Both the position numbers and the translations under genes were made by a program. A DNA stretch of 64,000 nucleotides, taken from assembly GCA_028287345.1 (NCBI GenBank), contig JAQBPV010000218.1:13681-77680 (forward strand). The letters are read 5' to 3'. Positions 1-19,103 of the stretch are shown piece by piece (positions within the stretch are counted from its first letter, which is position 1; every line of letters begins with the position of its first letter). The DNA comes from Gemmatimonadota bacterium (lineage in GTDB: Bacteria; Gemmatimonadota; Gemmatimonadetes; Gemmatimonadales; Gemmatimonadaceae). A model generated the notes under the pieces. The model saw only the letters and a program-made list of their open reading frames with translations, did not search any database and was not told the origin of the DNA.

Positions 1-1
1 G

Positions 2-1438
2 CGAGCGCTGGATTTCTTCGAGAGCGGATTCGGTGTAGGACGACGAATCCCATGGGGATTCGATGGCAGCCGGCTGCTGCTCGTGCCTCACGCCGGTCGC
101 GCGCAGAACGCGTACTACGACCGCGCGAGCCATTCGTTGCAGTTTTACTACTTTGAGGATGAGAAGAGCACGCTGTACACGTGTCTCTCGACGGACATCG
201 TCAATCACGAATTCGGGCATGCGGTACTCGACGGCATCCGTCCGCTTTTCATGGAATCCGTGCTGCCAGAGACTGCGGCGTTCCATGAATTCATGGGTGA
301 TCTCACCGCCATCCTGATTGCACTGCGCAACACGCCGTTCCGGAGATATCTCATCGCCGAAACTGGTGGCGACCTCGATAAGGATAGCGCGCTGTCCAAT
401 TTGGCGGAGCAGTTCGGCAGAGCCGTGGAGGGGCATCCATACCTACGGAGCGCGCGAAACGAACTCACCATGACAGACATCGTGGGCGACCAGCGGCCAC
501 ACTACATGTCACAAGTGCTCACCGGAACAATGTTTGACATCATTGTCCGTTTGTCGCGCTACTACGCCCAGGAGCGAGGACATTCGCTCGCGCAGGCGTT
601 TTGGTTCACGATCCAGCGCATGCAGAGCGTCGCCATCCAACCGCTCGACCTGTTGCCGCCGGTGGACGTCACCTTTCGTGACTACGCTCTCGCCGTTTTG
701 CGCTCCGACGAGGTCGCGAACCCAACCGACCCTGACGGTTATCGGGCGATGATGCTGGAGGCATTCGTCAATCGTGGCGTTCTTAACGACGAGGACCGCA
801 AGGCCTACTCGAATCCCCATCACGTCTTCGCGCGCCTCGACTTGGATGTGTTCCACGACATCGACACCATCGCGAGCTCACGCGCCGACGCCTATCGCTT
901 CCTCGATGATAACCGGCGGAAGCTCCTGATCCCGAGGAATGCCGACGTCACGGTCGTGGAGCTGTCGAAGGCCGACAAGCTAACGCGTGAGGCACGTCGG
1001 CTTCCTCGGCAGGTGCTGCTCCAGTACATCTGGCGGGAGGAGGTACTGCTGGACGGTGAGCAGTTTGGCCGGTTCGCGGGCCAGACGGTGAGTCTACTGT
1101 GCGGTGGCACGCTGGCCCTCAACCAGAACGGCGAGGTCCTGACTTGGGCTCGCAAGCCGGGCACAGATCTGATTGGCGAAAGCCAAAGTGTGAAGGCGGA
1201 GCAGGAGGCGGGTCGGTCGCGCCGCGCGGCTCTGCTCGAGGCGTTGCGGCAGCGGGTCCGAGCCGGCAGCATTACATCCGCCATCGGGGGCGAGGCAGGC
1301 CTGCTCGCGAGGACGCTGGCACCGCTGACGTCGCGGGTCGTCGATGGCGCGGTGCGTTTCGAACTTTCGCCGCACTTCGGAATTCACGAGGGCGACAATA
1401 CCGATCAGGGAGGCCGAGCATGGCAGATAAGCTCCTAA
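2..1438 (+). CDS. Thermolysin-like (gluzincin) zinc metallopeptidase, N-terminus outside window
   Basis: The frame is open from the window edge (no stop in 2-82), so the GTG at 83 is probably not the true start. The translation has HEFGH, then HEFMGD about 23 aa later (HExxH + ExxxD, the gluzincin arrangement). An upstream NAYYD...FYYF segment resembles the M4 active-site cleft region. Stop at 1436-1438. Confidence 0.7.
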   Translation, partial: RALDFFESGFGVGRRIPWGFDGSRLLLVPHAGRAQNAYYDRASHSLQFYYFEDEKSTLYTCLSTDIVNHEFGHAVLDGIRPLFMESVLPETAAFHEFMGDLTAILIALRNTPFRRYLIAETGGDLDKDSALSNLAEQFGRAVEGHPYLRSARNELTMTDIVGDQRPHYMSQVLTGTMFDIIVRLSRYYAQERGHSLAQAFWFTIQRMQSVAIQPLDLLPPVDVTFRDYALAVLRSDEVANPTDPDGYRAMMLEAFVNRGVLNDEDRKAYSNPHHVFARLDLDVFHDIDTIASSRADAYRFLDDNRRKLLIPRNADVTVVELSKADKLTREARRLPRQVLLQYIWREEVLLDGEQFGRFAGQTVSLLCGGTLALNQNGEVLTWARKPGTDLIGESQSVKAEQEAGRSRRAALLEALRQRVRAGSITSAIGGEAGLLARTLAPLTSRVVDGAVRFELSPHFGIHEGDNTDQGGRAWQISS

Positions 1439-2751
1439 TTCGCGCATACAACGTTGAGGTCGGAGACTGTCTCTATGTGCGCATCCCGAAAGGCAGAAAA
1501 GTGGGCAGGACCGTCGACGACTTTCATATTCTGATCGATTGCGGATCGGTGGGTGGCATGCCGCATCTGGAAGCCGCGCTGAAGAATCTCGCGACGATGC
1601 TGCCAGACGCCGGCGGAGGCAAGAAGCGCCTCGACCTCGTCGTGGCGACCCACGAGCACAAGGACCACATCGCTGGATTCGATCCCGACTTGTTCGAGAA
1701 CTTCAGTATCGGACACCTCTGGATGAATGCCGCGATGGATCCGAAGCATCCACAGGCGGACAAGTCATTCGCGTTGCGGGTCGCGGCGACCGCGGCGATG
1801 CGCGGTATCGCGAGTCAAAATCTCTCCCTCAGTCCAGAGCTCGAGGATCTCGTGGCCCTTTATGGCATCGACAACGACTCGGCCATGACCGCGCTGCGTG
1901 ATACGCTACCGCAACGCAGTGGAATCACCGCGGACTACGTGCACGCAGGAATGACCGGCGGGAAACTCGGGCTGCCGCTGAACGGCATATCGATCGACAT
2001 CCTGGGGCCGGAGCAGGACATCGATCGCTTTTATCTCGGCAAGGAGGCGGACAACTCGCTCAAGGGCCTCGTCGATGGCGCGGCGTTCTCGGTGGACGCA
2101 GTCACCGCGGTGCAGGCACCACGAAACGTCAGTGCATCCGAGTTCCGCCGCCTCCAGTCGCGGATGCTATCCTCTGCGTTCGCGTTCGCCGAGCTTTCAG
2201 GCAAGGTTACGAACAACACGAGCGTCGTCCTGCTCATCACCTGGAAGGGCAAGCGGCTGTTGTTCGTGGGCGACGCGGAGTGGGACTCGAAGTTCAAGGA
2301 GGGCAAATCCAACGGGTCGTGGAACGTGATGTGGAACAAACGACGCGCCCTACTGGCGAAAGGCATCGACTTTCTCAAGATCGGTCATCACGGCAGTGAG
2401 AACGCGACGCCGTGGAACGACCGCGAAGACGGAACCATGACCGAACCCAGCGCAATCCTCGACGCAATCCTGCCGCGCCCGGCTGCCGGAAGTATGGCAA
2501 CAGCGATGGCTGTAGTGTCCACGAAGCGCAAGAACTATGAGACGATCCCGCGCTCGGCGCTCCTTGCGGAGATAGGCACGCGCGTGGCCAATGTCCGGAA
2601 TTACGGGAAAGCGCTCGGCAAGCAAGCCCAAGCCTTGCCGAAATTCGCAGACTTCGAGAAGCAATGGGTGAACCTTCCGCAGCCGTGGCGGACTGACTGC
2701 GAAGGGATGCTCTCCAAGGACGCGTTCGTCGATGTGGAAATCGAAGGCTAA
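1420..2751 (+). CDS. MBL-fold metallo-hydrolase, ComEC-type
   Basis: ATG 1420 has GGGAGG 7 nt upstream and overlaps the protease stop by 19 nt. The ORF-track start at 1099 adds an Arg-rich, non-protein-like extension. Motifs: HILIDCGS, VATHEHKDHIAGF (HxHxDH), LLFVGDAEW, LKIGHHGSENA. Confidence 0.85.
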   Translation: MADKLLIRAYNVEVGDCLYVRIPKGRKVGRTVDDFHILIDCGSVGGMPHLEAALKNLATMLPDAGGGKKRLDLVVATHEHKDHIAGFDPDLFENFSIGHLWMNAAMDPKHPQADKSFALRVAATAAMRGIASQNLSLSPELEDLVALYGIDNDSAMTALRDTLPQRSGITADYVHAGMTGGKLGLPLNGISIDILGPEQDIDRFYLGKEADNSLKGLVDGAAFSVDAVTAVQAPRNVSASEFRRLQSRMLSSAFAFAELSGKVTNNTSVVLLITWKGKRLLFVGDAEWDSKFKEGKSNGSWNVMWNKRRALLAKGIDFLKIGHHGSENATPWNDREDGTMTEPSAILDAILPRPAAGSMATAMAVVSTKRKNYETIPRSALLAEIGTRVANVRNYGKALGKQAQALPKFADFEKQWVNLPQPWRTDCEGMLSKDAFVDVEIEG

Positions 2752-2769
2752 GACAAGTGAACCCACACC

Positions 2770-3783
2770 ATGACTGCTGACAAAGATCGGTCGCTTTCCG
2801 ACGAAGGCGTCCCAACTCCGGTGGGTAGGGGAAACACGTTCATCTCGATCGACGTCGAAGTCCAGCGACTTGCGAATCTGCAGTTCGCCGAGTTCGTCAA
2901 TGAGCTCATGGGGAAGGCCGAAAGAACCAAGAAGGAGCGCGCGATATACTTCGAGCGCCTTCGCAGCAGGAGTTCATATTGGGCGAACAACCTGCGGTTC
3001 TGGCTCGCGGGTTTCGGAGTCGCCGGGTTCGTGCTGACGATCGCGGCGTCGGTGGCACGCTTTCAGTGGGAGACGTCAGGTGCGGACAAACTGCTTCTCA
3101 TCGCAGCCTTGATGTTCTATGCGGTCATGGGGGCCATCAGCGCGTTCGACAGGTGGACGGACAAGACAACCACCTACTTTCGGCATGTAGGCGTATTGCT
3201 TTCCATTCGCGATCTGTGGACCAAACTCCAATTCGAAGTCCTCAGGGAGCTGACCGCGCTCGGAACCGTGCTCGATGAGACCGCTGAGCCGGCGGCTCGC
3301 CAGCGGATACAGCTTCTCGTCGAGGCGTTCAGTATGGACGCGGACAAGATCAGCAATACCGAGCAGGCGGAGTGGCGCACCGAGTTGTTGGCGTCGCGTT
3401 CCGAGCTCGAGGCAGTGTCCAAGCAGGGTGTCGATACCACGACTGCAGGAATTCAGGAGTCGATCAAAGCAGCTGCGAAGTTTGCGGACGAAGCAAAGGC
3501 CGCGGCAGAGAGGGCAGAGACAGCTGCCAAGATCGCCGCCGATGCCGGTCGACCGGGATCAGTGAATCTGACCATAGTGGCGGACTTCGACGACGAGGTC
3601 ACTATTTCAGTCGATGGCAGGGAGACGGCCAAGAGCACCGGTACGACTATCGCGCTGGAGCATGTGGCAACGGGCATGCGGAAGATCAGCGCTCGCGCGC
3701 TGAAGGGGGCAAAAGTGATCGAGGCCGCCGTTATGGTGGAGATCAAGCCCGGGTTGCAGGACGTCAGGATCGCGCTCGGCTGA
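2770..3783 (+). CDS. 2-TM membrane protein with long coiled-coil and C-terminal beta-rich domain (SLATT-like topology, unverified)
   Basis: It starts 18 nt after the MBL gene. It has two hydrophobic helices (FWLAGFGVAGFVLTIAASVA, LLLIAALMFYAVMGAISAF), then an Ala/Glu/Lys-rich helical stretch. The last ~90 aa are beta-rich (VTISVDGRETAKSTGTTIALEHV), PEGA-like. No enzymatic motif seen. Confidence 0.65.
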   Translation: MTADKDRSLSDEGVPTPVGRGNTFISIDVEVQRLANLQFAEFVNELMGKAERTKKERAIYFERLRSRSSYWANNLRFWLAGFGVAGFVLTIAASVARFQWETSGADKLLLIAALMFYAVMGAISAFDRWTDKTTTYFRHVGVLLSIRDLWTKLQFEVLRELTALGTVLDETAEPAARQRIQLLVEAFSMDADKISNTEQAEWRTELLASRSELEAVSKQGVDTTTAGIQESIKAAAKFADEAKAAAERAETAAKIAADAGRPGSVNLTIVADFDDEVTISVDGRETAKSTGTTIALEHVATGMRKISARALKGAKVIEAAVMVEIKPGLQDVRIALG

Positions 3784-4341
3784 TCCTAGGACTCGAGACA
3801 CGGGCAGTTTAGTCCGAGTGCTCGAATAGCAATGGATCGACATCGAGCAATGCGCTCGCCTCAGGTGTTTGGTCATCAAGGTCTGCCGGAGGGCCTAACC
3901 AACGCATAACGCGGTTTAGAGCTCTAACCGGCCGGTGGTCCCTGGCGTTGAACCGATCCGCAGATTAGAAAGTCTTAAGAGTTGCTGATCCGCGATGGAA
4001 AGTTGGCCTTGCAGCTATGAGCCATTCGCCGCATCATGTTGTGAGCGGAGTAGACGAGCTATATACGCAAAGTGTACAGTGTAGAAATGACGCCGAACCA
4101 GGGCTTGTGCGGCAGGCTGTCCATCGCAACTCGCCGCGCGAATCTCATACAGTTCCTTGCACCGGCACCAGGTTCCCGTGCTACCTCAGGAGTATCGCGG
4201 AGGAGCCCGTTGCTCGGACACCGCGGTAGTCGAATCTGTCGTTCAAACGGAGCCGTAACGGCTGGTATCATCGCTGACGTCCTTCGGGATATCGCGTAAG
4301 TCGACTAGCCGTCTTGGTGTGCCAACTCTGTTCGGGTCTCC

Positions 4342-4971
4342 ATGCCTCTACAGTGGTTCAGCGGCTTCGAATCATATAGCTATCGGGCGCGCCTCCTTCC
4401 GGTGCTCCTGACAGTGCTGCCAGTCCTCCTGACGGTCATGATTCTTTGCCCAGCGTTGTATACCGGCAAAGGTGCGGCTATACCGTCGGCGCTCGTATCG
4501 TGCGGCGCTATGTGGTTCCTCGCCAATGTGGTGCTACCACGCGGACGCGCTGCGGAAGCGGCATTCGTGAAGCAGTGGAGTGGGCACTCTACGGCTCGCA
4601 CACTGCGACATCGCAACGACGATGTGGAGCCAAACACGAAGCGGCGACATCACGCGCTCTTAATGACGCGGGTATCAAGCCTTCGTTTGCCAAAAGTAGA
4701 CCGGGAGCGAACGGACCCGAACTCCGCCGACGCGGCCTACCGGTCGGACGTCAATTGGCCCTTGGAATTCAGGCAGAATGCCTACCGGCTTCCGTTGGTC
4801 CGCATCGAGAACACGGCGTACGGCTTCTGGCGCTACCTCTATAGAGCAGAGCCCCTAGGACTCGCGCTGTACCTCGTGAGCACCTCGCACGCGGCAACGG
4901 CGGTTGTCGGTGCGGACGCGGCGAGCCACCGTGCTATACGCGCGCTCGCGTTGTTCTGGTGGTCGTGTTGA
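4342..4971 (+). CDS. Hypothetical membrane protein (two N-terminal TM helices), possibly C-terminally truncated
   Basis: ATG ORF of 209 aa. The N-terminus has LLPVLLTVLPVLLTVMILCPAL and ALVSCGAMWFLANVVL, followed by a soluble basic region. It sits after a ~560-nt ORF-free, lower-GC spacer and runs into the MBL remnant. Confidence 0.45.
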   Translation: MPLQWFSGFESYSYRARLLPVLLTVLPVLLTVMILCPALYTGKGAAIPSALVSCGAMWFLANVVLPRGRAAEAAFVKQWSGHSTARTLRHRNDDVEPNTKRRHHALLMTRVSSLRLPKVDRERTDPNSADAAYRSDVNWPLEFRQNAYRLPLVRIENTAYGFWRYLYRAEPLGLALYLVSTSHAATAVVGADAASHRAIRALALFWWSC

Positions 4972-5092
4972 ATTTCACCGCGGCGCGCTGGGCTTTCTTC
5001 GTGACGAAACTGTCCGCGCTCGATGCCTCGCCTGCCCACGCCGAGGCCCGTCCGCCTCGTGCGAAGCCCCTGAACCATACGCGCCATCACCA

Positions 5093-5438
5093 GTCGACAC
5101 CCGCACCCTGCGCCTTAAAATCTTTGATGTCGGTCACGGAGCTTGTGCGTTGCTGACCGCGTGCAACTACCACGCGTGACGAGCGACTGGGGCCATTGCG
5201 TCACACAATACTGGGCGGCAGCGAACATGCTGCGCGGACGCGGAGTCCCAGCTCGAGTCTCTCTTACGTTACGAACTACGATGAGGATCTTGTGAGCGGC
5301 AGGGCAACGTTCTTGACCGGGTTCAAGGGTCGTGGGTCTTCCGCAAAGGAGTGTGCGTCACCTCATACCATTCGACCGTCGAAGTCCAAGGACGGGACCA
5401 AGCACGACGCAAACTGCAACCACGACTCACTGCTCTAA
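5093..5438 (+). pseudogene. Remnant of a ComEC-type MBL-fold hydrolase gene
   Basis: One frame reads TLRLKIFDVGHGACALLTACN (typical MBL N-terminal strand/DxGxG region) and ends at a stop at 5177-5179. A second frame (5196-5438) reads LSYVTNYDEDLVSG in place of the HxHxDH motif, and ends after ~80 aa. No start codon lies before LRLKIF. Its TAA (5436-5438) directly abuts the ATG of the next gene. Confidence 0.55.
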
Positions 5439-6842
5439 ATGTCTAAAGCCACAGCCACCGACGAGACAGCCACCCCGGAGCAGCGCGCTGCTCGGCGCGG
5501 GGCACGAGCGATAATCAAGCACTCTCTGGCCATGTCTCCGAGGGAAGAACTCCTGGTGATCGTCGGCGAAGGAAAAGAAACGGAAATTGCTCTGCTGAGC
5601 AGCGTTGGTCGCGCGCTTGAGATTGAGGTTGGCGGGTTCATTGTACCAAATCAAACGCAACGACGCCTGACAGACCCGGAGCTGCTGCCGGGAACGTTGA
5701 AACGCGCGATCGAGACATGTCATGCCGTGTTAGTGTTGACTGACTACGCCGCCGAGCTCACAGCATTCCGCATGGCAGTACTCAGCTACTTCACGGACTT
5801 CCATCGGTTTGGTCGTGCGGCCTCAATGCCGGGAGGTAGTTGGCGGGAGTTTCACTACGCCGTAGGTGACTTCGAGCGCCTTGATGCGGACGCAGAAAGG
5901 GTGGGCGTGTTGCTCTTGAGGGCACACAGAGTCAATCTGGTCACGTCAGACGGTGAGAGAGACTACCACTTCAGCTTTCCTGTCGGTGCCAGGCCTACCA
6001 TCTGTGGTAGTGTCATAGCTCCAGGTGATTGGGACAACGTGCCATCGGGTGAAACATTCGTCCTTCCGAAAACGGGATGTGCCGATGGTAAAATCGCCAT
6101 TGACGGTAGTTTTCCGATGCTGCCACTCAATCGATCTACAAGCGTGATACTTACGATTGCCCGCGGGCGAATAATAGCAATGGATGGTGCCGACGGCGAA
6201 GCAGTGCGTCATGCTCGAGAGTTGTTCTTTGTTAACTATGCAAAGCGCCAATTGCGTGGCCGCAATGCGACGACATTCTGCGAGCTCGGGATCGGAGTCA
6301 ATCGCTCAGTGCGGACGTTTCACGGAATTCCCCTGTTCGATGAAAAGGTATACGGAACGGCGCATGTCGCGTTCGGAAGAAACGATCAACTTGGCGGCAA
6401 GGTTCACGGAGCGAGTCATCATGATCTCGTGATCGCAGCGCCACGGGTCTACCTTGACAATCAAGAGAAGCCCTTTGTGGCGAACGGGCGAATTGCGATT
6501 CCCAACGATCAGGTCGAACTGGATTGGACGAAGACAGAACCGCTCACCACCACGACGGGCACCATACGCTTGACTGGAGCATCCTGCTCCGTTCAACCCG
6601 CTACCGAGGAGCTAATCATGGAGTGGAACGCATGTGCCGGTCCGAGCATTCGCACAAGAGTCGGAAACTTTGCTACCAGTCAGCTCGCAGGGCGAGCATT
6701 CCGAACAATAGGGGAGAATGGGTTGTCTCTCAAACAATTCTATCGCGTGATGAAAGAGCGCAACGCACTCGATAAAGAAATCGCATCGAGAGCGCTTGCC
6801 ATTCTTAACGCGTATGGAATAATCAGGGTCGCAAGGGCATAG
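5439..6842 (+). CDS. Peptidase family M29 (aminopeptidase T/PepS-like) protein
   Basis: 467 aa. M29-like blocks: DNVPSGETFVLPK, FCELGIGVNRSV, LFDEKVYGTAHVAFGRNDQLGGKVHGASHHDLVI. Confidence 0.7.
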   Translation: MSKATATDETATPEQRAARRGARAIIKHSLAMSPREELLVIVGEGKETEIALLSSVGRALEIEVGGFIVPNQTQRRLTDPELLPGTLKRAIETCHAVLVLTDYAAELTAFRMAVLSYFTDFHRFGRAASMPGGSWREFHYAVGDFERLDADAERVGVLLLRAHRVNLVTSDGERDYHFSFPVGARPTICGSVIAPGDWDNVPSGETFVLPKTGCADGKIAIDGSFPMLPLNRSTSVILTIARGRIIAMDGADGEAVRHARELFFVNYAKRQLRGRNATTFCELGIGVNRSVRTFHGIPLFDEKVYGTAHVAFGRNDQLGGKVHGASHHDLVIAAPRVYLDNQEKPFVANGRIAIPNDQVELDWTKTEPLTTTTGTIRLTGASCSVQPATEELIMEWNACAGPSIRTRVGNFATSQLAGRAFRTIGENGLSLKQFYRVMKERNALDKEIASRALAILNAYGIIRVARA

Positions 6843-6850
6843 GAGTAAAC

Positions 6851-8434
6851 GTGAGCGACGCGCTGGAGTTCGTGAGACGAGTCGGCGCTGAAGCCACGCC
6901 GAAGAGCAATGCCAATGGTATTGCCATTTACGATATCGATGTGAGCGCTACCTTTCGCGGTCTGCAGGATCCCGTAAAGCTCGTTCACGTGTCGGAGCGT
7001 TACGCAGTAGAGGGGGCGTTCGACCTAGAAGCCGTATCTCGCCACATAGGACAGCTTCAGGTGAACTCGCGTCAGGTGGCTCTATTCCTTGTTAACGGAG
7101 AGCGAAGCAGGCCCAATACCGTGGTGCCGGCAGCTTGGCTTGTGCTTGACAGAGTGTTGGTGCAGGCCGTCACGGGAGCGGCAAATCCCCGAGTGGCGCT
7201 CGGCAAGCTTATGCGAGACAAACTCCGCCTCGGTGTGCTGGCGCCGTATTCAACGTCGCATACGCCATCACAAGCAATGTTCTACGGTCGTGATGCTGAA
7301 CTGCGCGACGTCGCGCAGAATCCGGGCGAAAGCTTTACGCTGATCGGCCCGCGACGTATTGGGAAGTCGTCTCTTGCCCGCATAATGGAAGCACAAATCA
7401 GGAAAAGCGCCGGACCGGCATTGCGTCTCGCTGCTGACCGTTATGCCTTCAGCACCGCGTACGTTGACTGTGATCTGCTTCCGAACCTAGATCAACCGGT
7501 AGACGACTTCTTTGAGCAAGTACTAAAGGCTATGAAGCTCGAGGCAAGGGATATTGCGTACAACCGCAAGGTCTTTGGCCGAACCATCCGCGCCACGACA
7601 CCATTCGAGTACTTCAATGCGTTGGTCAGCTCGAAATTCAGCAGCGTGACGCTCGTTATCGACGAGGTCGATGCGCTAATTCAGCATGAACGAAAAAACG
7701 GGTGGCCGCTCTTGCACAAAGTGCAAGGGTTGGCAGATCGCGCCCGTGGAACGACCGCCGACGGAGACCGCTGCCGCACCAATGTCATCCTTGTTGGTTT
7801 TGCCGTACTTCACGATGCGATGTTCGATACTGACTTCCCATTCTATCAAAGGTGCCGCCCGCTTGTCATAGGCAACTTGGGAAAGAGCGCAACAACTCAA
7901 CTCATCGTCGAACCATTTAGGGAACTCGCGGTAAAAATCGAACCGGAGGATGAGGTAGTAAACAGAATCTACGAACAGACGGGCGGCATGCCATCGCTTG
8001 TCCAAGCCGTCTGTAAGGAAATCCTATTGCGGCTTGAGGTCGAGGGTATCCGCACCATAACGCCAGCGCTAGTTGACGATGCGATTCGAAAGCTCGGACC
8101 CGTGGCGAATTACATGAGCTGGGTAGATTTCCAGGCCACCGCTCTCGAGAAGGCGATTGTATACTTCGCTGCTCCACTTAAACGCTTGCGGGCGGAGGAC
8201 TTGGCGAAGTTTCTCGCGAGCAAGGGAATACACGTGGATAAGAATGCGCTGAACGGACCTTTGGATCGCCTTGCGCTCGCGAATATTCTGCGCGCCACGA
8301 GGCGGTACGATACGTACGAATTCTCCGTGGAGGCTTTTCGAAGGGCGGTTACTGCAATGACAGACCGCGCCGCGGTGCTTGAGAGGCTGGTCAGCGACGC
8401 GCGTCAAGAGTGGGGCCGACGTCACTCGCGATGA
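6851..8434 (+). CDS. AAA/STAND-type ATPase (Arch_ATPase/ORC-Cdc6-like) with ~150-aa N-terminal domain of unknown function
   Basis: GTG 6851 has AGGAG 6-10 nt upstream and lies 8 nt after the M29 stop. FYGRDAELRDV...FTLIGPRRIGKSSLARIM is the FxGRexEL + Walker A block. VTLVIDEVDAL is Walker B. Confidence 0.8.
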   Translation: MSDALEFVRRVGAEATPKSNANGIAIYDIDVSATFRGLQDPVKLVHVSERYAVEGAFDLEAVSRHIGQLQVNSRQVALFLVNGERSRPNTVVPAAWLVLDRVLVQAVTGAANPRVALGKLMRDKLRLGVLAPYSTSHTPSQAMFYGRDAELRDVAQNPGESFTLIGPRRIGKSSLARIMEAQIRKSAGPALRLAADRYAFSTAYVDCDLLPNLDQPVDDFFEQVLKAMKLEARDIAYNRKVFGRTIRATTPFEYFNALVSSKFSSVTLVIDEVDALIQHERKNGWPLLHKVQGLADRARGTTADGDRCRTNVILVGFAVLHDAMFDTDFPFYQRCRPLVIGNLGKSATTQLIVEPFRELAVKIEPEDEVVNRIYEQTGGMPSLVQAVCKEILLRLEVEGIRTITPALVDDAIRKLGPVANYMSWVDFQATALEKAIVYFAAPLKRLRAEDLAKFLASKGIHVDKNALNGPLDRLALANILRATRRYDTYEFSVEAFRRAVTAMTDRAAVLERLVSDARQEWGRRHSR

Positions 8435-9846
8435 TGCGCCTGTTCGAAAGTCAAGAGCCGATCAGTATGGCCGCCATCCACAAGCACTTGGCGGAGGACA
8501 GCCATTTACATGGCATCGAGCCGGCCGCAGACGCGGCGACTGATTTGCCGATTTTTGTAGAGCAGATTCACGAGGCACACAAGCATAGCACGGCTCAGCT
8601 ATTGGCTGACGGAGTGCCACGGGTTCTGTGCAGGCCATCGACCGAGGGAAAAAGCACGGAGTTAAACTACATTGCGTGCCGCTTCGAAGCGCGGCCGCTC
8701 GATGGTAAGCAAAGAATAGGGATTCGTTTCGGACGAAGCGCGCGTGAGTTTTCGCGGTCACAAGTGTTCGCCATCCTCGCTGAGCGGCTGCAAGTCAAAC
8801 GCTGTGCATCACTTAAAGACGCAATCGAAGCCACGCGCGCAACGCAGTTGCTATTGACATGCGATAATATCGAACAGTTGCCAGACGACGCGCTTGCGTG
8901 GCTGCTCGCAAGTGTGAAAGACATGGGTCAGGACAAGGAGTTTTTGCAACAGCGTGGTGTATGTATTGTGCTCGCTGGCTCCATGGGACTTGCGCACAGC
9001 GCGCGCAACGTCTATTCGCACTATTTCGCCGATGAGGCTGCACCCCGAGTGCGAGACTATAATGCGACAGACCTGGAAGATGTGAATCAGCAATTGCGGA
9101 AGCGTGCCAACGTGGGCCTATCTGACGACGCCATTGCCGCCGTCATGCTGCAGTCCGCTGGCGACAAACGCTTGGCGAATATGATCCTTGAAATTGGCGT
9201 TAGAGCGCACTTGCGAAAAGGGGACGGTGAGGAGGCGCAACTTGAGCGAGGAGAGATTGATGCGGCAGTGGAACACTATACCACAATAGTCTTTCGTACG
9301 GACCGACGCTGGCAGCGAGCGCTCGAGAGCGTCCTGACCGACCGTGAGGCATGGAAGGCGTTGCGTGACATTGTGCGCGGACGCGATGTGCTGTGGGCCT
9401 ACATGCCGCCTTCCGTGCGCGGCGTGTTATTCCGGTGTGGCTTACTCGACGTCGAGGCCGAAGCCGCAAAGCCAAAGAACGCAATCATTGAGCGATTACT
9501 GCATTCTGCGCTTCGTCGGCAGTTGGACACACGTTCTTTCGTGAAGAGATGGTTTGCGTCGGATTCTGAAATGCCCGGCTCCACAAGGGAACGCCGCAAG
9601 TCAACGCGCGCGTTTCTCCAGCGGCAGGCCATATCTGGATGGCTGATGTGGCTGTTTTATGCGGAGGTAGTTGCGCGCGATGACACTGAGCTGACTCTGC
9701 GGTTTGTTGATGCGAAAGGCAATGAGGCATTCGGTAAGATGGCACTCGAGGATTTTGGGTTCGATCCGGAAATTGTAGAAGCATTCATAAAGTACTGCAT
9801 CTGGACGCCTCATGGGCTAAAGGAAATTGCTGTGCCCTATGCGTAA
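8431..9846 (+). CDS. ATPase-like protein with degenerate Walker motifs (paralog-like partner of the upstream ATPase)
   Basis: ATG 8431 overlaps the upstream TGA (ATGA). RPSTEGKSTELNYIA keeps GKST but lacks the first Walker A Gly. LLLTCDNIEQL has DN in place of the Walker B DE. The C-terminal ~200 aa have no recognised motif. Confidence 0.6.
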   Translation: MMRLFESQEPISMAAIHKHLAEDSHLHGIEPAADAATDLPIFVEQIHEAHKHSTAQLLADGVPRVLCRPSTEGKSTELNYIACRFEARPLDGKQRIGIRFGRSAREFSRSQVFAILAERLQVKRCASLKDAIEATRATQLLLTCDNIEQLPDDALAWLLASVKDMGQDKEFLQQRGVCIVLAGSMGLAHSARNVYSHYFADEAAPRVRDYNATDLEDVNQQLRKRANVGLSDDAIAAVMLQSAGDKRLANMILEIGVRAHLRKGDGEEAQLERGEIDAAVEHYTTIVFRTDRRWQRALESVLTDREAWKALRDIVRGRDVLWAYMPPSVRGVLFRCGLLDVEAEAAKPKNAIIERLLHSALRRQLDTRSFVKRWFASDSEMPGSTRERRKSTRAFLQRQAISGWLMWLFYAEVVARDDTELTLRFVDAKGNEAFGKMALEDFGFDPEIVEAFIKYCIWTPHGLKEIAVPYA

Positions 9847-10993
9847 CGCGTCCATTAGAGATAGGGGAACGCCCTTCACTCGCGAAGCGCGAAGATGGCC
9901 GCGCGAAGTGCACGTGGAAAAGCACGAAATCACCGTTAGTGTCACCGGCGGCGGGAATGGCGAAAGCATACTGATGAACGTTGGGAATGCCTTGATAGGC
10001 ATCGTCGATTCTTGCGCCGCAGTTGCCGAGGGAGGATCAAGCGTACGGCGCGCAATTGATAGCCTATTATCCGCACAGACAAATGTGGCCTTCGGATTCA
10101 TTGTGCTAACGCATCCGCACCTGGATCATTTCGAAGGGATGGATCGATTGTATGCGGAGTATGGCAAAGACGTTATAAGAGCGTGCCTGTTCCAAGGGAC
10201 TACCGAGTTGGAACTGAGTGAACTCTTCAACAAAAGGGAAAAGCAACCACAAAGGAGCGCGCGGGCTTATCGGTTTTTCAAGAGTTACTCTAAGATCCTG
10301 CAGGTATACCGTGACACACTGACTGGCGCACAACGGTTCGCTATCGGTGATGGGAGTGAAATATGTGCGTTGGAAGTCCGCGATAGTAATGGTAGGGCGG
10401 TGAGGCTCCGCGTATCATGTCTAGCCCCGTCCCGAGATGACGTAGAGCTGTTTTTGATGCAGGCGAAGATGACTAATTGCTACGACATCGCGAGTGGCGG
10501 GCGCCAAAGTTTGCGGCAGCGATGCAACGGAGTCTCGGCTGTGCTGCGAATCGAGTTTGGAGAGACACGGATCATGCTTGGTGGCGATGCTGAGCTAGAT
10601 AGCTGGCGGCAGATCCAAAGCAAAAATGGGCCTGATGAACTGGCGTCAGATGTTCTCAAGGTCAGCCATCACGGGTCCAGAACTGGAATGGACGCCGCTC
10701 TTGCGGCAGTACTGTCCAAGGGAAAGAGAGGTCGCTCTGAGACAGTTGCGGTGGTGACGCCGTCATTTTTGCACGGTCTTCCACACGATGAAACACTAGC
10801 CGTTCTTGATGAGCATTTTGATAGGGTAATCGTGAGCGTGGGGCAGGCACAGGAGACGATGGATGTAGGGAGTTGGGTGGGTAAGTTGCCACAAGTACGT
10901 GGAATAAGCGCGATTCAGAAGTATGCGACGAACGCTGTATCGCTTACCTATGATGCGACTGGACATTGCCTCGATATCACGCGCGATGTGTAG
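9839..10993 (+). CDS. MBL-fold metallo-hydrolase, ComEC-type (second intact copy)
   Basis: ATG 9839 overlaps the upstream gene by 8 nt (the ORF-track TTG 9827 is also possible). Motifs: FIVLTHPHLDHFEGM (HxHxDH), IMLGGDAELDSW, LKVSHHGSRTGM. Confidence 0.85.
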   Translation: MRNASIRDRGTPFTREARRWPREVHVEKHEITVSVTGGGNGESILMNVGNALIGIVDSCAAVAEGGSSVRRAIDSLLSAQTNVAFGFIVLTHPHLDHFEGMDRLYAEYGKDVIRACLFQGTTELELSELFNKREKQPQRSARAYRFFKSYSKILQVYRDTLTGAQRFAIGDGSEICALEVRDSNGRAVRLRVSCLAPSRDDVELFLMQAKMTNCYDIASGGRQSLRQRCNGVSAVLRIEFGETRIMLGGDAELDSWRQIQSKNGPDELASDVLKVSHHGSRTGMDAALAAVLSKGKRGRSETVAVVTPSFLHGLPHDETLAVLDEHFDRVIVSVGQAQETMDVGSWVGKLPQVRGISAIQKYATNAVSLTYDATGHCLDITRDV

Positions 10994-12156
10994 TGGTACA
11001 GCAAGCGCGCGATGACGCGACAGTAGACGGTAGCGATGACCCATTGCGGCTACGAAGGGGCAAGCTTGGTGGGAGCGCTCGCGCCGGCCAGGTAAGGCGG
11101 TTGGTAGGGACTGCGCTCTAACGGTGCGATGCACCGTCAAGTGGGCGGATAGTGTGCGCGTACCAAGAGGTCGTCTGCTCGGTGCAAAGCCCGGCGGAGC
11201 GAATGCCGACCGAAGCCGTGACCCTACGGTCGATGCAGCGGGCTCCCGCGACATGCTTTGATGTAACTCACTGTAGTCTCCGATAAGATGCCAGCATCAA
11301 TCGACGCAGCTGTCGATGGAACAAAGGGTGGAGAAGAGCCTGACAACGAACATGAATGTCAGGGTCTCTCTTCTAGAAGCAGATGCGGTCAGCACCACCG
11401 GTGCTCAACGAATGCCAGTATGGACGCGAAAGTGCTGTTCACCCGCCGCGAGCCGCTGGCTCAACGTGCAATAGCTGGGGGTGGTAGGCAGAGCGGCTGG
11501 CACAACACGGTGGTTCGCACTTCCTCTATGTCGTGCACGATGACGGTTGAACAGCAGCTCTCTGGGCTCGTCAGCGGGGATGTTCTGTGCGTTTAACTCC
11601 TGGAGTTGAGCGAGCCGCCGATCAGTATGCGCCAGCCATGACGTGGTATGGTCTGCTGCTCGGAGATGATGGTGATCATGTGATCGACCGACTGGAGACG
11701 TCGTGCGAGCCGCTCGAAAAAGTGGGAGGCGGCTCTTCGCGATTGCACTTCCGCACCGACGTTGTGCTTGGAGTTCTCCATCTCCGGGAGCGAGAACAGG
11801 GCCGATAGACCAACACGGTGAGGGCGCCGAGAGGCGCTGTCGGCCGGTTGGTGGTATTGTGCCGGGCGGTTCCATCAGCCGGCAGGTGTTGAACCACGAA
11901 AGTTAGGCGTGCACTAACGCGTATGCTCCAGCGGCAACGCCGAGCAGGCTCGTCTATCGCGTGTAATACTAGCGGCGCGTTGCCGAGACTCGATGTAATT
12001 GCGTGCGAACCATGAGTACGTCTCGTCAGGATGACACTCTCACGTGGTCTGCCCGAGCAAGTTTGGAATCCAGTATTGGCGTGGTGCACGAAGCGGAGAT
12101 GCTGGCTTGCTGGCTTGCTTGCTGTAATAGGCCCTAGTCCCTTCGAGAGTCCCCGC

Positions 12157-14409
12157 ATGATCCATCTGAGCCGTCCGCGCCAAAGTCCGGAGAACTTGCA
12201 AAGCCTCGCAGTCGACGGTCTGCGCGACCGAGTGAGGTCGTTTTACGCGCGAGCCGAGCGCAGTCGACGACAGGAGCGTGCGGACTTTCCTCTCCTTCCC
12301 AGGACTGTATTCGCGAAGGTCATGCGAGATATGCTCGCATACTCGTACGGTAAGTGCGCTTACTGCGAATCACCGATTGAATTCCCGGGCAGTGCGTCAC
12401 TGGATAGATACCGCCCGAAAGCCGGTGCGATCGGCTTCGACGGGAAATTTTCGACGGAGCACTATTGGTGGCTGGCCTATGAGTGGGAGAATCTCCTTCC
12501 CGCATGCACTAAGTGCAATAAGTTCAAGGGTGCCAAATTCCCGGTCGAGGGTAGTCGTGCGGCGACGACGGCGGCAGCCGATGAACTACAGACGGAGTCT
12601 CGCCTGCTGCTCGATCCGTGTTACGATGCTCCGTACGAACACCTGCAGTTCAATGACAGGGGTTTGGCGATGGCCTCCTCGCCATCGGGCGATGTCACGA
12701 TTGCGACGCTCGAGTTGAATCGCAGTGAGTTGATCGCTAGCCGCGGGAAAGTCGTGCGGGAACTACGGAGTGCGATTGCGCAGATAAAGTGGAACTCGGC
12801 CGCACTGGACGAGTGGATTGCATGGGGAGCGAATCGCGAGTCGGCGCATCTACCTGCTGCTGAAGCCACACCGTGGCAGACGGCGTTCGCTCGCATCGCG
12901 CAACTCGCGAGCCCAGAAAGGCCTTGGTCTGCCGCAGCCGCCGCGATACTCGATCATGGCCCAGAGGCAATCCTCTTAGGTGTCGTCAAGAGCGAACCTG
13001 TTTCGGCGGCGACATGGGCTGCTGCGCCGAGCGATATCCCTCGCCTAGCGCGCGCGGTCGAACCTGAAGCGGCATTGGGTCCGTCGGTGGGCAGCAGGTC
13101 AAGTCATGGTCGGGCCATCGCGAAGAAGGCGCAGAGCCTCCGTAGCCGCGTTGTTACTCGAATAGCCGTCCACAACTTCCGTGGCATAGCTGATCTTGAC
13201 ATGCGGATCGATTACGAGTCTGGCCGAGGCGCACCTTGGACCATTCTGCTTGGCGAAAATGCCGCCGGGAAGTCGTCGATCCTTCAGGCGGTTGTCCTTG
13301 CCCTGATCGACGAGGGTGACGACACAGCGATCGCTGCTACACCTCGTCAGGTGCTCAAGAAGGGCACATCCACGGGTTGGGTGCGCGTGTGGCTTGACGA
13401 ATCGACGGTGCCGCGCTCTCTCGTCTTCAACTCCAGGAGCCGGCGCTTTCGCCGTAGCGGCCCGCCGTACGCGAACGTCTTGCTCGGGTACGGGGCCACG
13501 CGACTCCTCCCCCGGAAGTACACTCGCAGGGCAAAGGCTCGTGTTCGGCTGAATAACATGTTCGATCCGTTCAGCCCTCTGCTCGACGCCAATCGATGGC
13601 TGGGAGCGCTCGACGCGCGAACGTTCGACTATGTGGCGCGCGCACTGAAAGACGTACTTGATCTTCCTCCCTTGTCAACGCTGAAGCGCGTGCGACGAGA
13701 CAAGCTCCCCGGCGTGAGATTGAAGCTGTTTGGTGTGGATCTCACGCTCGACGATCTCAGTGATGGGTACCAGTCGGTCCTTGGGTTGACGTGCGACATC
13801 ATCGCCGGTCTCCATGTTACGTCGAGTGGCGCGCTTGAGGCCGCGGAGGGGCTGGTGGTGATCGACGAACTAGGTGCACACCTGCACCCTCGCTGGCGCA
13901 TGCGTATCGTCCGGAGTCTGCGGACGGCCTTCCCGCGCGTGCAGTTCATCGCCAGCACCCACGATCCGCTGTGCCTGCGCGGGCTGGAGAACGGCGAGGC
14001 AATCGTCCTGAAGCGGACCTCGCGGCGCCGCATCTACGTCGTCCCCGACTTACCGCCAATCAAGGGCATGCGCGTAGATCAGATCCTCACATCGGAGTAC
14101 TTCGGTCTGGAGTCCTCGATGGATCCCGATGTCGAGCGCAAATTCCGGTCGCTGTACCGTCTTCTTGCCAAGCGAGTCGTCACCTCTGCAGACGAGGGGC
14201 GCATCGCGGCGCTCCGTGAAGAGCTCGCGCCTTTCGAGGTGCACGGTGCTACGCGGCGAGAGCGGCGCCTCCTGGAGCTCATCGACAAGGAACTGGCGGC
14301 CAGCGATGAGCAAGCGGATCCGCAGAAGCGCCACGCTATTCGGGCGTCCACCGACCTGATGGTGGCCGACATGAACCGAAGGCTTGCCGCTGGAGAGTCG
14401 ATCACATGA
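12157..14409 (+). CDS. HNH-like domain fused to ABC/OLD-type AAA ATPase (Septu PtuA-like)
   Basis: I chose ATG 12157 (MIHLSRP...) because it parallels the MIHVDRP... start of the next gene. N-terminal Cys-rich HNH-like block: CAYCES...LDRYRPK...WENLLPACTKCNKFKG. ATPase motifs: LLGENAAGKSSILQAV (Walker A), LVVIDELGAHLHPRW (Walker B), FIASTHDPLCL (H-loop). Confidence 0.8.
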   Translation: MIHLSRPRQSPENLQSLAVDGLRDRVRSFYARAERSRRQERADFPLLPRTVFAKVMRDMLAYSYGKCAYCESPIEFPGSASLDRYRPKAGAIGFDGKFSTEHYWWLAYEWENLLPACTKCNKFKGAKFPVEGSRAATTAAADELQTESRLLLDPCYDAPYEHLQFNDRGLAMASSPSGDVTIATLELNRSELIASRGKVVRELRSAIAQIKWNSAALDEWIAWGANRESAHLPAAEATPWQTAFARIAQLASPERPWSAAAAAILDHGPEAILLGVVKSEPVSAATWAAAPSDIPRLARAVEPEAALGPSVGSRSSHGRAIAKKAQSLRSRVVTRIAVHNFRGIADLDMRIDYESGRGAPWTILLGENAAGKSSILQAVVLALIDEGDDTAIAATPRQVLKKGTSTGWVRVWLDESTVPRSLVFNSRSRRFRRSGPPYANVLLGYGATRLLPRKYTRRAKARVRLNNMFDPFSPLLDANRWLGALDARTFDYVARALKDVLDLPPLSTLKRVRRDKLPGVRLKLFGVDLTLDDLSDGYQSVLGLTCDIIAGLHVTSSGALEAAEGLVVIDELGAHLHPRWRMRIVRSLRTAFPRVQFIASTHDPLCLRGLENGEAIVLKRTSRRRIYVVPDLPPIKGMRVDQILTSEYFGLESSMDPDVERKFRSLYRLLAKRVVTSADEGRIAALREELAPFEVHGATRRERRLLELIDKELAASDEQADPQKRHAIRASTDLMVADMNRRLAAGESIT

Positions 14410-15281
14410 TTCACGTCGACCGACCGATCACGAAGGCACCACCGGACTGGCTCACCGTGGCGAAGGAGGAACAGGCACTCGTCGAAACGGCGTACGCCGA
14501 ATATCAGAAGGCCGTGAAAGGAAAGGGAAAGAATCGCCCCGAGTTCGTCTATGAGTTCAAGGCATACGGCCACGTACTCCTTCGTGATGCGCTAAACAGC
14601 GTCTACGGCTTCAAGTGCGCGTACTGCGAGTCATACTTTGGTGCGACGCAGCCCGTCGCTGTGGAGCACTACCGGCCAAAGGGCGCCTTCGTCGAAGGCA
14701 AGGTGAAGGTGAAGCCGGGCTATTTCTGGCTGGCGTCCGCGTGGGAGAATCTCCTTCCCAGCTGCACTGACTGTAACTCACCCCGGCGCCAAGAAATGGT
14801 GGCGGGAAAGAAGGTCGTGCGCGGCAAAGGAAACTTCTTTCCAATCGTGCCGGGGTCTAGGCGCGCGCGCCGGCCGGGGCAGGAGAAGAATGAGCAACCG
14901 TTGCTGCTGCATCCTGAAGTCGACCAGCCCGATCAGCACCTAGAGTTCATAACAGACCACGATCGCGTTGGGCTCGTGCGACCTGCGCTCGTAAACGGAA
15001 GTGAGAGCGCCAGGGGCGCCGCGTCGGTCGACGTCTACGCACTCGATCGGCCGCAGCTCATTCAGGCTCGAAGTGAGCATGCGAAACGGCTGATCAGCCA
15101 CATTCGCAACACACGGCTAACGCACGAACTCCATCAGTCGAAACCAGGTGACGCGTCAGCCAGGCAAGCGTACGAGGACAATTGGAACGATCTGCACGCC
15201 CTGTACCTGTCACCCGCCAACCCGTATTTCGCGATGGCTCGACATATCGTGCGCGCCAAGCTTCCCGGGATTCATATATAA
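14406..15281 (+). CDS. HNH endonuclease (Septu PtuB / TIGR02646-like)
   Basis: ATG 14406 overlaps the upstream stop (ATGA). Motif: CAYCESYFGATQPVAVEHYRPKGAF...YFWLASAWENLLPSCTDCNSPRRQ, with the His intact. Confidence 0.8.
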   Translation: MIHVDRPITKAPPDWLTVAKEEQALVETAYAEYQKAVKGKGKNRPEFVYEFKAYGHVLLRDALNSVYGFKCAYCESYFGATQPVAVEHYRPKGAFVEGKVKVKPGYFWLASAWENLLPSCTDCNSPRRQEMVAGKKVVRGKGNFFPIVPGSRRARRPGQEKNEQPLLLHPEVDQPDQHLEFITDHDRVGLVRPALVNGSESARGAASVDVYALDRPQLIQARSEHAKRLISHIRNTRLTHELHQSKPGDASARQAYEDNWNDLHALYLSPANPYFAMARHIVRAKLPGIHI

Positions 15282-15712: not shown

Positions 15713-15735
15713 GGGTCGCGCGTTCGAGTCCCGCC
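15713..15735 (+). repeat. tRNA T-arm-like 23-mer, copy 1 (possible decayed tRNA/att remnant)
   Basis: GGGTCGCGCGTTCGAGTCCCGCC contains GCGCG-TTCGAGT-CCCGC, a T-stem/loop with one C-C mismatch. A CTCATAC loop sits at anticodon-loop distance upstream, but the acceptor, D and anticodon stems do not pair. Confidence 0.4.
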
Positions 15736-16254: not shown

Positions 16255-16277
16255 GGGTCGCGCGTTCAAATCCCGCC
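16255..16277 (+). repeat. tRNA T-arm-like 23-mer, copy 2
   Basis: GGGTCGCGCGTTCAAATCCCGCC matches copy 1 at 21/23 positions, including the same C-C stem mismatch. The flanks diverge immediately and no cloverleaf could be built. Confidence 0.4.
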
Positions 16278-18406: not shown

Positions 18407-19034
18407 GTTCGCCGGTTCGATACGGATCCTGCTCGCCGACGATCACGCGATCGTGCGCAACGGCGTCGCGCAGATTCTGAATGAAGAGCGCGGGATGAGC
18501 GTGGTCGCGCAGGCGGCCGACGGTGCGGAAGCCGTTGAACTGTTCGCGCTCCATCGCCCGGACGTGGCGCTCCTCGATCTGCGCATGCCGAAGCTGGAAG
18601 GCGTCCAGGTGGTGGAACAGATCCGGGCGCGTTTCCCCGACGCCGCCACCATCATGCTGACGACATACGATACCGATAACGATATCGAGCGCGCGTTGCG
18701 CGCGGGGGCCAAGGCCTTTCTCGTGAAGGACGTGTCGCCGGAAGAGTTGGTGGCCTGCGTCCGCGCCGTGCATGCGGGGCGCAGTTGGGTGTCGCCCAGA
18801 GTCGCAGCCAAGCTGGTTGCGCACGTGACGAATGTGCGCATCACCCGGCGCGAGCTCGCTGTCCTACGGCTATTGGCAGCCGGAAATTCCAACAAGGAGA
18901 TTGGCGACGCACTCGGCATCACCGACGGCACGGTGAAGATTCACGTCACGCACCTGTTCGCCAAGCTCGATGTGACGAGCCGTACGGAAGCGATCAATGT
19001 TGCCCTGCGACGAGGGCTCGTGCGGATCGACTGA
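18399..19034 (+). CDS. NarL/LuxR-family response regulator
   Basis: Overlaps the kinase stop by 8 nt. Receiver: ILLADDHAIVRNG...DVALLDLRMP. HTH: LTRRELAVLRLLAAGNSNKEIGDALGITDGTVKIHVTHLFAKL. Confidence 0.9.
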   Translation: MIEFAGSIRILLADDHAIVRNGVAQILNEERGMSVVAQAADGAEAVELFALHRPDVALLDLRMPKLEGVQVVEQIRARFPDAATIMLTTYDTDNDIERALRAGAKAFLVKDVSPEELVACVRAVHAGRSWVSPRVAAKLVAHVTNVRITRRELAVLRLLAAGNSNKEIGDALGITDGTVKIHVTHLFAKLDVTSRTEAINVALRRGLVRID

Positions 19035-19103
19035 GGCTGGCGGCGTATCACTAGGTGAGCCACATTCGCTGCCCTGCTGTCTACCACCCGAACCGCGTTG
19101 CGA

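Follow-up and report, generated by a model that had tools for sequence, protein, structure and literature searches.

The window analysed here, a 64-kb stretch of an 84.6-kb Gemmatimonadetes contig from a metagenome-assembled genome (MAG), contains four genes, A, B, C and D, at positions 5439-10993. They encode an M29-fold metalloenzyme, two paired ATPases and a hydrolase with a ComEC-type metallo-beta-lactamase (MBL) fold, respectively. Judged by comparison with homologous loci, the four genes are a real, conserved, self-contained and horizontally transferred unit, wherein A+B+C is the invariant part and D is one swappable output. With slightly more confidence than doubt, we read the cassette as an ATP-driven sensor switch that would release a nuclease in anti-phage defence of the abortive-infection type.

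The A-B-C-D order was found in at least nine loci from at least four clades, at 22-45% protein identity and with differing flanks. Every close homologue of A, C or D on a sufficiently long contig sits in this order. Likewise, all D homologues of at least 35% identity on the contigs examined belong to an A-B-C-D cassette, and the next-nearest D-like protein (30% identity) lies in an unrelated three-gene context beside an integrase. Identities to the window proteins are 34-43% for A, 27-38% for B, 27-32% for C and 32-42% for D; between all pairs they are 34-43%, 27-38%, 22-33% and 30-42%, respectively. Because the identities of all four proteins drop in parallel, these data indicate that the cassette is inherited as a unit. 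An earlier, sequence-only reading of this DNA had proposed a candidate defence operon and asked whether the four genes are syntenic elsewhere and whether they form a conserved metabolic or competence locus. Synteny was found in the loci described above, and the flanks vary from locus to locus, so that this is not a conserved metabolic or competence locus. The cassette was not detected in IMG/VR viral contigs, INPHARED phages or PLSDB plasmids, where only two generic M29-like genes, both on plasmids, were seen; these three collections thus give no evidence that phages or known plasmids carry the cassette.

The four open reading frames (ORFs) lie on the + strand exactly where the sequence-only reading had placed them and, according to the ORF list and the sequence of the window, are translationally coupled. 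The stop codon of A (TAG, 6840-6842) is followed by an 8-nt gap, and an AGGAG at 6841-6845 precedes the GTG start of B at 6851 by 5 nt. B and C overlap in ATGA at 8431-8434, and C and D overlap by 8 nt, ATGCGTAA, at 9839-9846; all three junctions are as previously claimed. The 8-nt C/D overlap is also present in L002, L004, L006 and L105 (L numbers denote individual loci; Table 1). In the non-coding region upstream of A, a sigma-70 consensus scan returned 6 sites against 3.3 +/- 2.0 expected (one of them at 5094-5121), which is not above chance, and a terminator scan was likewise no better than chance. With a GC content of 0.552, the operon is the most AT-rich 5.5-kb segment of the 64 kb (mean 0.612, standard deviation 0.022), and GC content falls to 0.52 at 7380-7700, confirming the AT-richness relative to the flanks that had been noticed before. 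Moreover, the GC content at third codon positions is 0.55-0.62 in the operon and 0.68-0.80 in other genes. This foreign base composition bears out the earlier suggestion of horizontal acquisition.

Scans with conserved A motifs revealed a wider family, comprising 10 genome loci and 80 metagenome loci; a metagenome scan with the C-derived pattern GK[TS]TELN[YF]I gave no confirmed relative. A is followed by a B-like gene in 68 of the 70 distant loci with at least 1.2 kb of downstream sequence, the exceptions being an A fragment and a degraded copy. A third gene, of 680-1581 amino acids (aa), comes next and in most cases overlaps by 4 nt; its N-terminal domain is a homologue of C with an often degenerate P-loop (for example GPKYSGRTT, GPQFCGQRL or GPRHHLKSR). 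The remainder of this third gene carries the outputs listed in Table 1, which include PP2C phosphatases, histidine kinases, metallophosphatases and CHAT domains. In L057, the gene after the histidine-kinase-type third gene encodes a response regulator. The metallophosphatase output of L017 matches the NCBIfam model DS9_1_antiphage (DS-9A domain) at 144 bits, with a cut-off of 420; the DS-9A metallophosphatase is a validated anti-phage domain reported with DefensePredictor (PMC13092281). Since A and B are kept together while the C-like ATPase is fused to varied outputs, the comparison identifies A+B+C as the invariant unit and D as swappable. By the same comparison, a stand-alone C with its output encoded by a separate MBL gene is the rarer arrangement, and it is the one seen in the window clade.

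Table 1. Features of the cassette in the window, its homologous loci and the outputs of related third genes
Feature	Position in window, or loci	Strand	Description
Upstream non-coding region	4972..5438	+	Presumed promoter; 467-nt gap between ORF 4342-4971 and the ATG of A
Gene A	5439..6842	+	467 aa; M29/NicX-fold metalloenzyme with C-terminal winged-helix-like domain
Gene B	6851..8434	+	527 aa, GTG start; AAA+/STAND-like ATPase
Gene C	8431..9846	+	471 aa from ATG (alternative start GTG 8410); paralogue of B with modified P-loop
Gene D	9839..10993	+	384 aa from ATG (alternative start TTG 9827); ComEC-type MBL-fold hydrolase
A-B-C-D loci	Window, L002/L003, L004/L005, L006, L007, L008, L104, L105		L009 partial
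Genome loci of the wider family			Hosts: Acidobacteriota/Thermoanaerobaculia, Terriglobus, Anaerolineae and Promineofilum MAGs
Third-gene output SpoIIE/PP2C	L011, L027, L034, L046/47		
Third-gene output GAF-HATPase_c	L036, L049, L057/59/65, L074		Histidine kinase
Third-gene output GAF only	L033		
Third-gene output Metallophos (Pfam)	L016-18, L050, L073, L080, L089, L101		Calcineurin-like metallophosphatase
Third-gene output CHAT	L012, L019		
Third-gene output unassigned	L015, L083, L087, L092/94		About 890 aa in total

Several of these loci have features of their own. The third genes of about 890 aa (L015 12912-15578, L083 12927-15602, L087 10852-13539 and L092/L094) have the P-loop GPKYSGRTT, with lysine changed to arginine, and a C-terminal part of about 450 aa that has no family match except in L087, where a weak nucleoside 2-deoxyribosyltransferase-like match (E 7.5e-4) was obtained; this C-terminal half may be a new output domain. 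In L019 (11370-18521), B is split and two CHAT-fused ATPase genes stand in tandem. The copy in L013 (9962-12786) is degraded: its A is truncated, and B survives in fragments only.

A direct profile comparison of B with C (hhalign E 8.5e-5) identifies them as paralogues. C aligns with the N-terminal domains of the effector-fused third genes at 99.2% probability (E 1.7e-19), and B aligns with the same domains at 98.3%. Because most relatives have the C-like ATPase fused to an effector, C is, on the pattern of these relatives, the output-carrying adaptor. The sequence-only reading had called B a STAND-type ATPase. The sequence support is weaker than stated, and B is described here as AAA+/STAND-like: of the Pfam models matched over residues 140-385, AAA_22 alone reaches its cut-off (28.2 bits), and nSTAND1 (22.1 versus 27.1 bits), ATPase_2 (25.4 versus 33.2), AAA_16 and AAA_35 all remain below threshold; relatives of B have precomputed, unmarked matches to nSTAND1, ATPase_2 and AAA_16. 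The Walker motifs are intact: across 56 relatives there is almost no variation in Walker A (GxRRxGK[TS]S) or Walker B (hhhDExD), and B is predicted to be competent for hydrolysis. Its N-terminal domain of about 140 aa has no assigned function, and a PDB sequence search with B returned nothing usable.

The model of C, with a predicted local distance difference test score (pLDDT) of 83.8, shows an AAA+ core, a lid and a winged helix, followed by a C-terminal beta domain. Its top Foldseek matches are the archaeal ATPase_2 proteins 2qen and 2fna, and Orc1/Cdc6, RFC and RuvB are also among its matches; C has no Pfam, PADLOC or NCBIfam match. The description of C as "Walker-degenerate" needs to be narrowed: in its P-loop, RPSxEGK[ST]TEL, the first glycine is lost, but neither GK[ST]T nor the Walker B aspartate varies. 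C is also rare: 5.8 billion proteins contain just two further clusters at 90% identity, and a search of 1.84 billion representatives gave only 30 relatives.

An alignment-based AlphaFold model of A has a pLDDT of 92.9, and Foldseek gave NicX (7cn3) as the best match (E 1e-20, template modelling score 0.71), followed by PepS (4icr), AmpT (2ayi) and AmpS (1zjc) at E 1e-16 to 1e-15. The claimed M29 domain is thus confirmed as a fold at the level of the model, but its sequence support is weaker than had been stated, with a Pfam M29 score of 15.9 bits against a cut-off of 27; the precomputed family match is PF26233 (NicX). In the model, the M29/NicX fold spans residues 1 to about 345, and a beta plus three-helix, winged-helix-like domain follows at about 375-467. 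This C-terminal domain (about 120 aa of beta strands and three helices) is absent from generic 315-aa M29-like relatives, which score at most 93 bits compared with 266-988 bits for cassette members and have housekeeping surroundings (ribosomal, Omp85/TamB, BacA and LplA genes). All 69 non-redundant relatives keep the metal ligands E205, E282, H309 and H327, and 68 of them keep D329. The mononuclear iron site of NicX consists of what we take to be His265, Ser302, His318 and Asp320. In a hidden Markov model alignment of A with 7cn3, H265 corresponds to Glu282 and S302 to Ala311, and only H318 and D320 are common to both proteins. The catalytic motif of M29 enzymes is EEHYHD (PMC7023490). Its tyrosine is missing from A, where the loop reads GRNDQLGG, and this GxNxxxGG loop resembles that of NicX.

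A housekeeping locus is one way to read these matches: a ComEC-type MBL would point to competence, and a NicX-type dioxygenase or an ordinary aminopeptidase to catabolism, with the genes clustered by chance. The closest solved relatives of D are indeed ComEC proteins, NicX is the best structural match of A, and the NCBI annotation of A is "aminopeptidase". We nevertheless regard this reading as very improbable. The ComEC competence or membrane domain is lacking, as are com and nic genes; A has Glu and Ala in place of two NicX iron ligands and keeps the M29 pattern; generic M29-like relatives are distinct from A; and the cassette flanks are unconserved. Competence, NicX-type catabolism and bulk aminopeptidase activity were rejected as roles on these grounds, together with a sub-threshold ComEC_Rec2 score of D.

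The sequence-only reading had counted the M29 protein among two hydrolases on the effector side. This assignment did not survive the survey of relatives. A is kept with the ATPases whatever the output, and being strictly conserved alongside each type of output, it is more likely a part of the sensor or switch than an effector. The role of A is nevertheless the least certain step of our reconstruction. M29-fold proteins that bind peptides without hydrolysing them are known, namely CgnB and CgnE (PMC10070186). It is a tentative and somewhat doubtful possibility that the M29-fold protein is the ligand-sensing subunit, for a peptide or an N-terminus, of a new class of bacterial cytoplasmic receptor with an asymmetric pair of ATPases, one active and one adaptor, wired interchangeably to immune effectors (MBL DNase, CHAT protease, DS-9-like metallophosphatase) or to signalling outputs (PP2C, histidine kinase plus response regulator). 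If true, a single gene family would join switches of the innate-immunity type to two-component signalling. In L014 (739-3387) and L016 (9677-12235), A is extended at its N-terminus by about 400 aa that have no Pfam match; a PDB sequence search with the long L016 variant returned nothing usable.

D carries the THPHLDH motif that had been pointed out, and its best matches are of the ComEC type as claimed, though all of them are weak. The active-site residues H92-x-H94-x-D96-H97, D250 and H277-H278 are invariant among relatives. ComEC MBL nuclease domains are its closest solved relatives (at most 38 bits), and its matches to the LmuA-MBL, RTasMBL, Avs1a and 6A-MBL models are partial and far below the cut-offs: 22.9 bits versus 420 for Avs1a in NCBIfam (17.7 bits in PADLOC, residues 232-291 only) and 40.3 versus 220 for 6A-MBL (NF058524, residues 230-288 only). 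ComEC_Rec2 scores 31.5 bits versus 190, over the C-terminal MBL segment only. A Competence (PF03772) membrane domain was not found in D by Pfam, and its 384 aa are a size expected of a soluble protein. D is similar in size to HamM and Avs1a, and the stretch from its HxHxDH motif to its GD motif has about 55 residues more than in the ComEC MBL domain. Two hydrophilic loops, at about 130-145 and 213-226, are poorly conserved, and D shows no obvious conserved cut site at Ile or Gly. From its motifs and relatives, D is predicted to be the DNase output of the cassette.

ComEC-like MBL DNases, working alongside a peptidase and an NTPase, act as abortive-infection effectors (Tuck et al. 2025, PMC12799240) in nuclease-protease modules that include Avs1, HamMAB Hachiman, Lamassu-MBL, DRT-MBL and canu; further nuclease clades are paired with "other diverse" protease families (PMC12799240). 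By analogy with Avs1, HamMAB, Lamassu-MBL and canu, A might activate an autoinhibited D, with B and C timing the processing. The operon has the same part list, in that it unites an NTPase and a peptidase-fold gene with a ComEC-like MBL of about 380 aa that is encoded separately; the size of D, its extra residues, its two variable loops and its weak matches to the LmuA-MBL, RTasMBL and Avs1a profiles would also fit. We consider such protease gating of a pro-nuclease unlikely, however. Relatives whose output is PP2C, a kinase, CHAT or a metallophosphatase conserve A just as well, and because it persists without any MBL its role is not specific to D. Characterised M29 enzymes are exopeptidases rather than loop-cleaving endopeptidases, and A lacks the catalytic tyrosine. 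Furthermore, a stand-alone protease with the nuclease downstream is the reverse of the described arrangement, with A three genes upstream of D, and D scores far below the Avs1a and 6A-MBL cut-offs.

In the sensor-switch reading that we favour, A would bind or trim a peptide or protein N-terminus that appears or changes upon infection or stress, and would license an ATP-dependent assembly of B and C, wherein B is the active partner and C the adaptor. The B-C assembly would activate D, which would degrade DNA and halt phage replication in an abortive-infection-like manner. The active sites of A, B and D are, in the alignments, under selection. In this reading, the trigger, a physical A-B-C-D complex, the DNase activity, the part played by A and any immune phenotype are inferences. 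Support comes from the defence genes that neighbour the window clade, namely Septu, Wadjet, E1/E2/JAB, CHAT and patatin genes. Septu lies 1 kb downstream of D in the window, at 12031-15281 (PADLOC; PtuA 792 aa, 642 bits; PtuB 291 aa, 221 bits). The closest relatives lie in dense defence islands: the flanks of L006 (89-7534 and 15328-19607) contain an integrase, a 373-aa MBL followed by a 796-aa E2/ThiF/JAB fusion, a patatin and Wadjet type III JetA and JetB. In L104 (1-446), JAB/ThiF and BubE stand beside the cassette, and two TPR-CHAT genes neighbour that of L105.

Other findings weigh against an immune role. Many siblings output to a histidine kinase and response regulator or to PP2C, so the A-B-C core may serve signalling in general and not immunity. 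L004 lies beside chemotaxis (che) genes and L007 beside ABC-transporter genes. Among 106 neighbours sampled at 24 distant loci, there was no recurrent family and almost no PADLOC signal; judged by Pfam, they are a heterogeneous set in which genes for housekeeping or regulation predominate (DegV, G3P dehydrogenase, ECF sigma, HAD, radical SAM). The PADLOC matches listed (PD-T4-6, mad6, a kinase model, MkoA and PglW, two neighbours each) are most likely generic ones from the two Ser/Thr protein kinases that Pfam identified. The similarity of D to nuclease MBLs is weak, B (527 aa) and C (471 aa) lack the large repeat-type sensor domains of Avs proteins, and the peptidase activity of A is uncertain, because the tyrosine of the EEHYHD motif is absent from its sequence.

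These points can be combined into a non-immune signalling reading, in which A+B+C is a general sensor of peptides, proteolysis state or a metabolite, and D serves stress-induced or developmental DNA/RNA turnover or programmed death. The SpoIIE/PP2C and GAF-HATPase_c outputs, the latter with a response regulator, fit it, as do the heterogeneous, ordinary flanks of the distant loci and hosts (Acidobacteriota, Chloroflexota and Gemmatimonadota) that are rich in complex signalling proteins. We judge this reading rather improbable, though it deserves serious weight. The MBL-armed clade repeatedly adjoins known defence genes and integrases, CHAT and DS-9A-like metallophosphatase outputs are typical immune effectors, the cassette has a foreign composition and a patchy, rare distribution (as the 30 C-type relatives illustrate), and an unregulated ComEC-type DNase is unlikely as a routine output. 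Therefore, immunity is plausible for the nuclease-armed clade and, because many siblings have signalling outputs and ordinary neighbourhoods, it is not established for the family as a whole.

The sequence-only reading could not map the operon to a named system, and PADLOC v2 and NCBIfam (release 20, June 2026, with many anti-phage families named of late) assign none. By protein, PADLOC v2 gave no match for A or C, only PDC-S01 for B (E 0.0055 over 25 residues) and only partial MBL-domain matches for D, and searches of Pfam, PADLOC and NCBIfam detected neither a trypsin nor a TPR domain in A, B or C. Targeted literature searches found no paper describing the system, nor M29 proteins or aminopeptidases in defence or STAND contexts, and no M29 partner is mentioned in the Aravind-group conflict-system papers, the 2026 Avs survey, DefensePredictor or the nuclease-protease paper. 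In PADLOC v2 and NCBIfam the system has no name; it works in the manner of conflict systems that couple an NTPase to a swappable effector, and most resembles the Avs1-type modules of NTPase, peptidase and MBL, from which another peptidase fold, the lack of a TPR sensor and sub-threshold MBL scores set it apart.

Like Avs1, HamMAB, Lamassu-MBL, DRT-MBL and canu, the cassette combines in one operon an NTPase switch, a peptidase fold and a separate ComEC-like MBL of about 380 aa. However, its peptidase is an M29-fold metalloenzyme, whereas theirs is trypsin-like (and fused) or a caspase. A stands alone and first in the operon and is kept regardless of output, and two short paralogous ATPases without TPR sensors precede the MBL. 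The trypsin-like protease that Avs1 has fused to a STAND NTPase with a TPR-like sensor is absent, and the Avs1a score is below the cut-off. If the protease-gating theme of ComEC-like pro-nucleases applies here at all, the cassette may extend it to a metallopeptidase fold. The STAND/AAA+ conflict systems described by Kaur, Burroughs, Iyer and Aravind (2020/2021) share with the cassette family an NTPase core with interchangeable CHAT, phosphoesterase and nuclease effectors, and are likewise enriched in Acidobacteriota, Chloroflexota and similar phyla; in contrast to them, an M29-fold protein and two paralogous ATPases are invariant here, and the outputs include PP2C and histidine kinases. A shares its fold with the M29 enzymes AmpS, AmpT and PepS, with NicX and with CgnB/CgnE (Foldseek E 1e-20 to 1e-15), and has the five dinuclear-metal ligands of M29; it differs in lacking the catalytic tyrosine and the NicX iron ligands, in its extra domain of about 120 aa and in being part of an ATPase operon. 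Finally, the likeness to DS-9 concerns the metallophosphatase outputs of sibling systems (tested for L017) and not the MBL form of the window. The score is below the cut-off, and DS-9 has neither an M29-like gene nor paired ATPases.

If confirmed, the cassette would represent an undescribed defence or conflict core, in which an aminopeptidase-fold metalloenzyme is strictly coupled to two paralogous ATPases. About 100 loci, from soil and sediment phyla that have been little studied, share this core. It would also extend the M29 family, until now seen as housekeeping, to a regulatory or sensing role. The family would amount to a natural effector-swapping experiment, since one core occurs with nuclease, caspase-like protease, metallophosphatase, PP2C phosphatase or histidine kinase outputs. 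Such swapped outputs make the rewiring of NTPase switches between immunity and signalling a testable question.

A patatin-like phospholipase gene adjoins the cassette in two divergent clades, at L002 (2055-3437, - strand), L006 (6113-7534) and L008 (6171-7394), and was considered as a fifth component. It was rejected: the gene is absent from the window, L004, L007, L104 and L105, its side and strand differ between loci, and identity between clades is 30%. We therefore treat patatin, on this distribution, as a recurrent neighbour and not as a part. The MBL next to ubiquitin-like E1/E2/JAB genes in L006 recalls the "6A-MBL" system named in NCBIfam. In L015, a 1053-aa CHAT-MBL fusion (17742-20903) lies about 2 kb downstream of the sibling A-B-C system; its MBL part matches LmuA-MBL at 206 bits and Avs1a at 130 bits, and the protein looks like a "canu"-like caspase-nuclease.

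The operon had been placed between two conflict-type modules. Downstream, this stands in the form of a clear Septu; upstream, there is a second MBL gene and a possible protease-MBL pair. An ORF that runs off the left end of the window and extends to 1438 carries the HExxH zinc-protease motif HEFGH and has no Pfam, PADLOC or PDB match. It is overlapped or abutted by the second MBL gene, ORF 1099-2751 (likely true start about 1420), which scores 60 bits on LmuA-MBL and 41 bits on Lactamase_B. The unannotated genes 2770-3783 (coiled-coil or membrane-like) and 4342-4971 (membrane-like) follow. The region 1-4971 may hold a metalloprotease and MBL-nuclease pair of the type hinted at for "other protease families" (Tuck et al. 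2025). Between D and Septu, the spacer 10994-12030 contains only short overlapping ORFs, at 10796-11254 (-), 11288-11596 (+) and 11405-11875 (-), and its ORFs have no Pfam or PADLOC match. The two Septu genes share 4 nt, and PtuA has an N-terminal PtuB-like segment, which accounts for a 57-nt direct repeat (12462-12518 and 14720-14776, 79% identity).

The sequence-only reading had also described the island as bounded by tRNA-like scars. No tRNA was found in the window by ARAGORN, and there was no Rfam match; upstream of the operon no scar was seen, so only the right-hand part of this claim stands. There, 23-nt direct repeats at 15713-15735 (GGGTCGCGCGTTCGAGTCCCGCC) and 16255-16277 (2 mismatches) resemble a tRNA T-arm and 3' end. 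They lie 542 bp apart, between Septu and the first two-component gene, and none was expected by chance in shuffled sequences. To judge from their sequence and position, they are probably att-like remnants at the right edge of the island.

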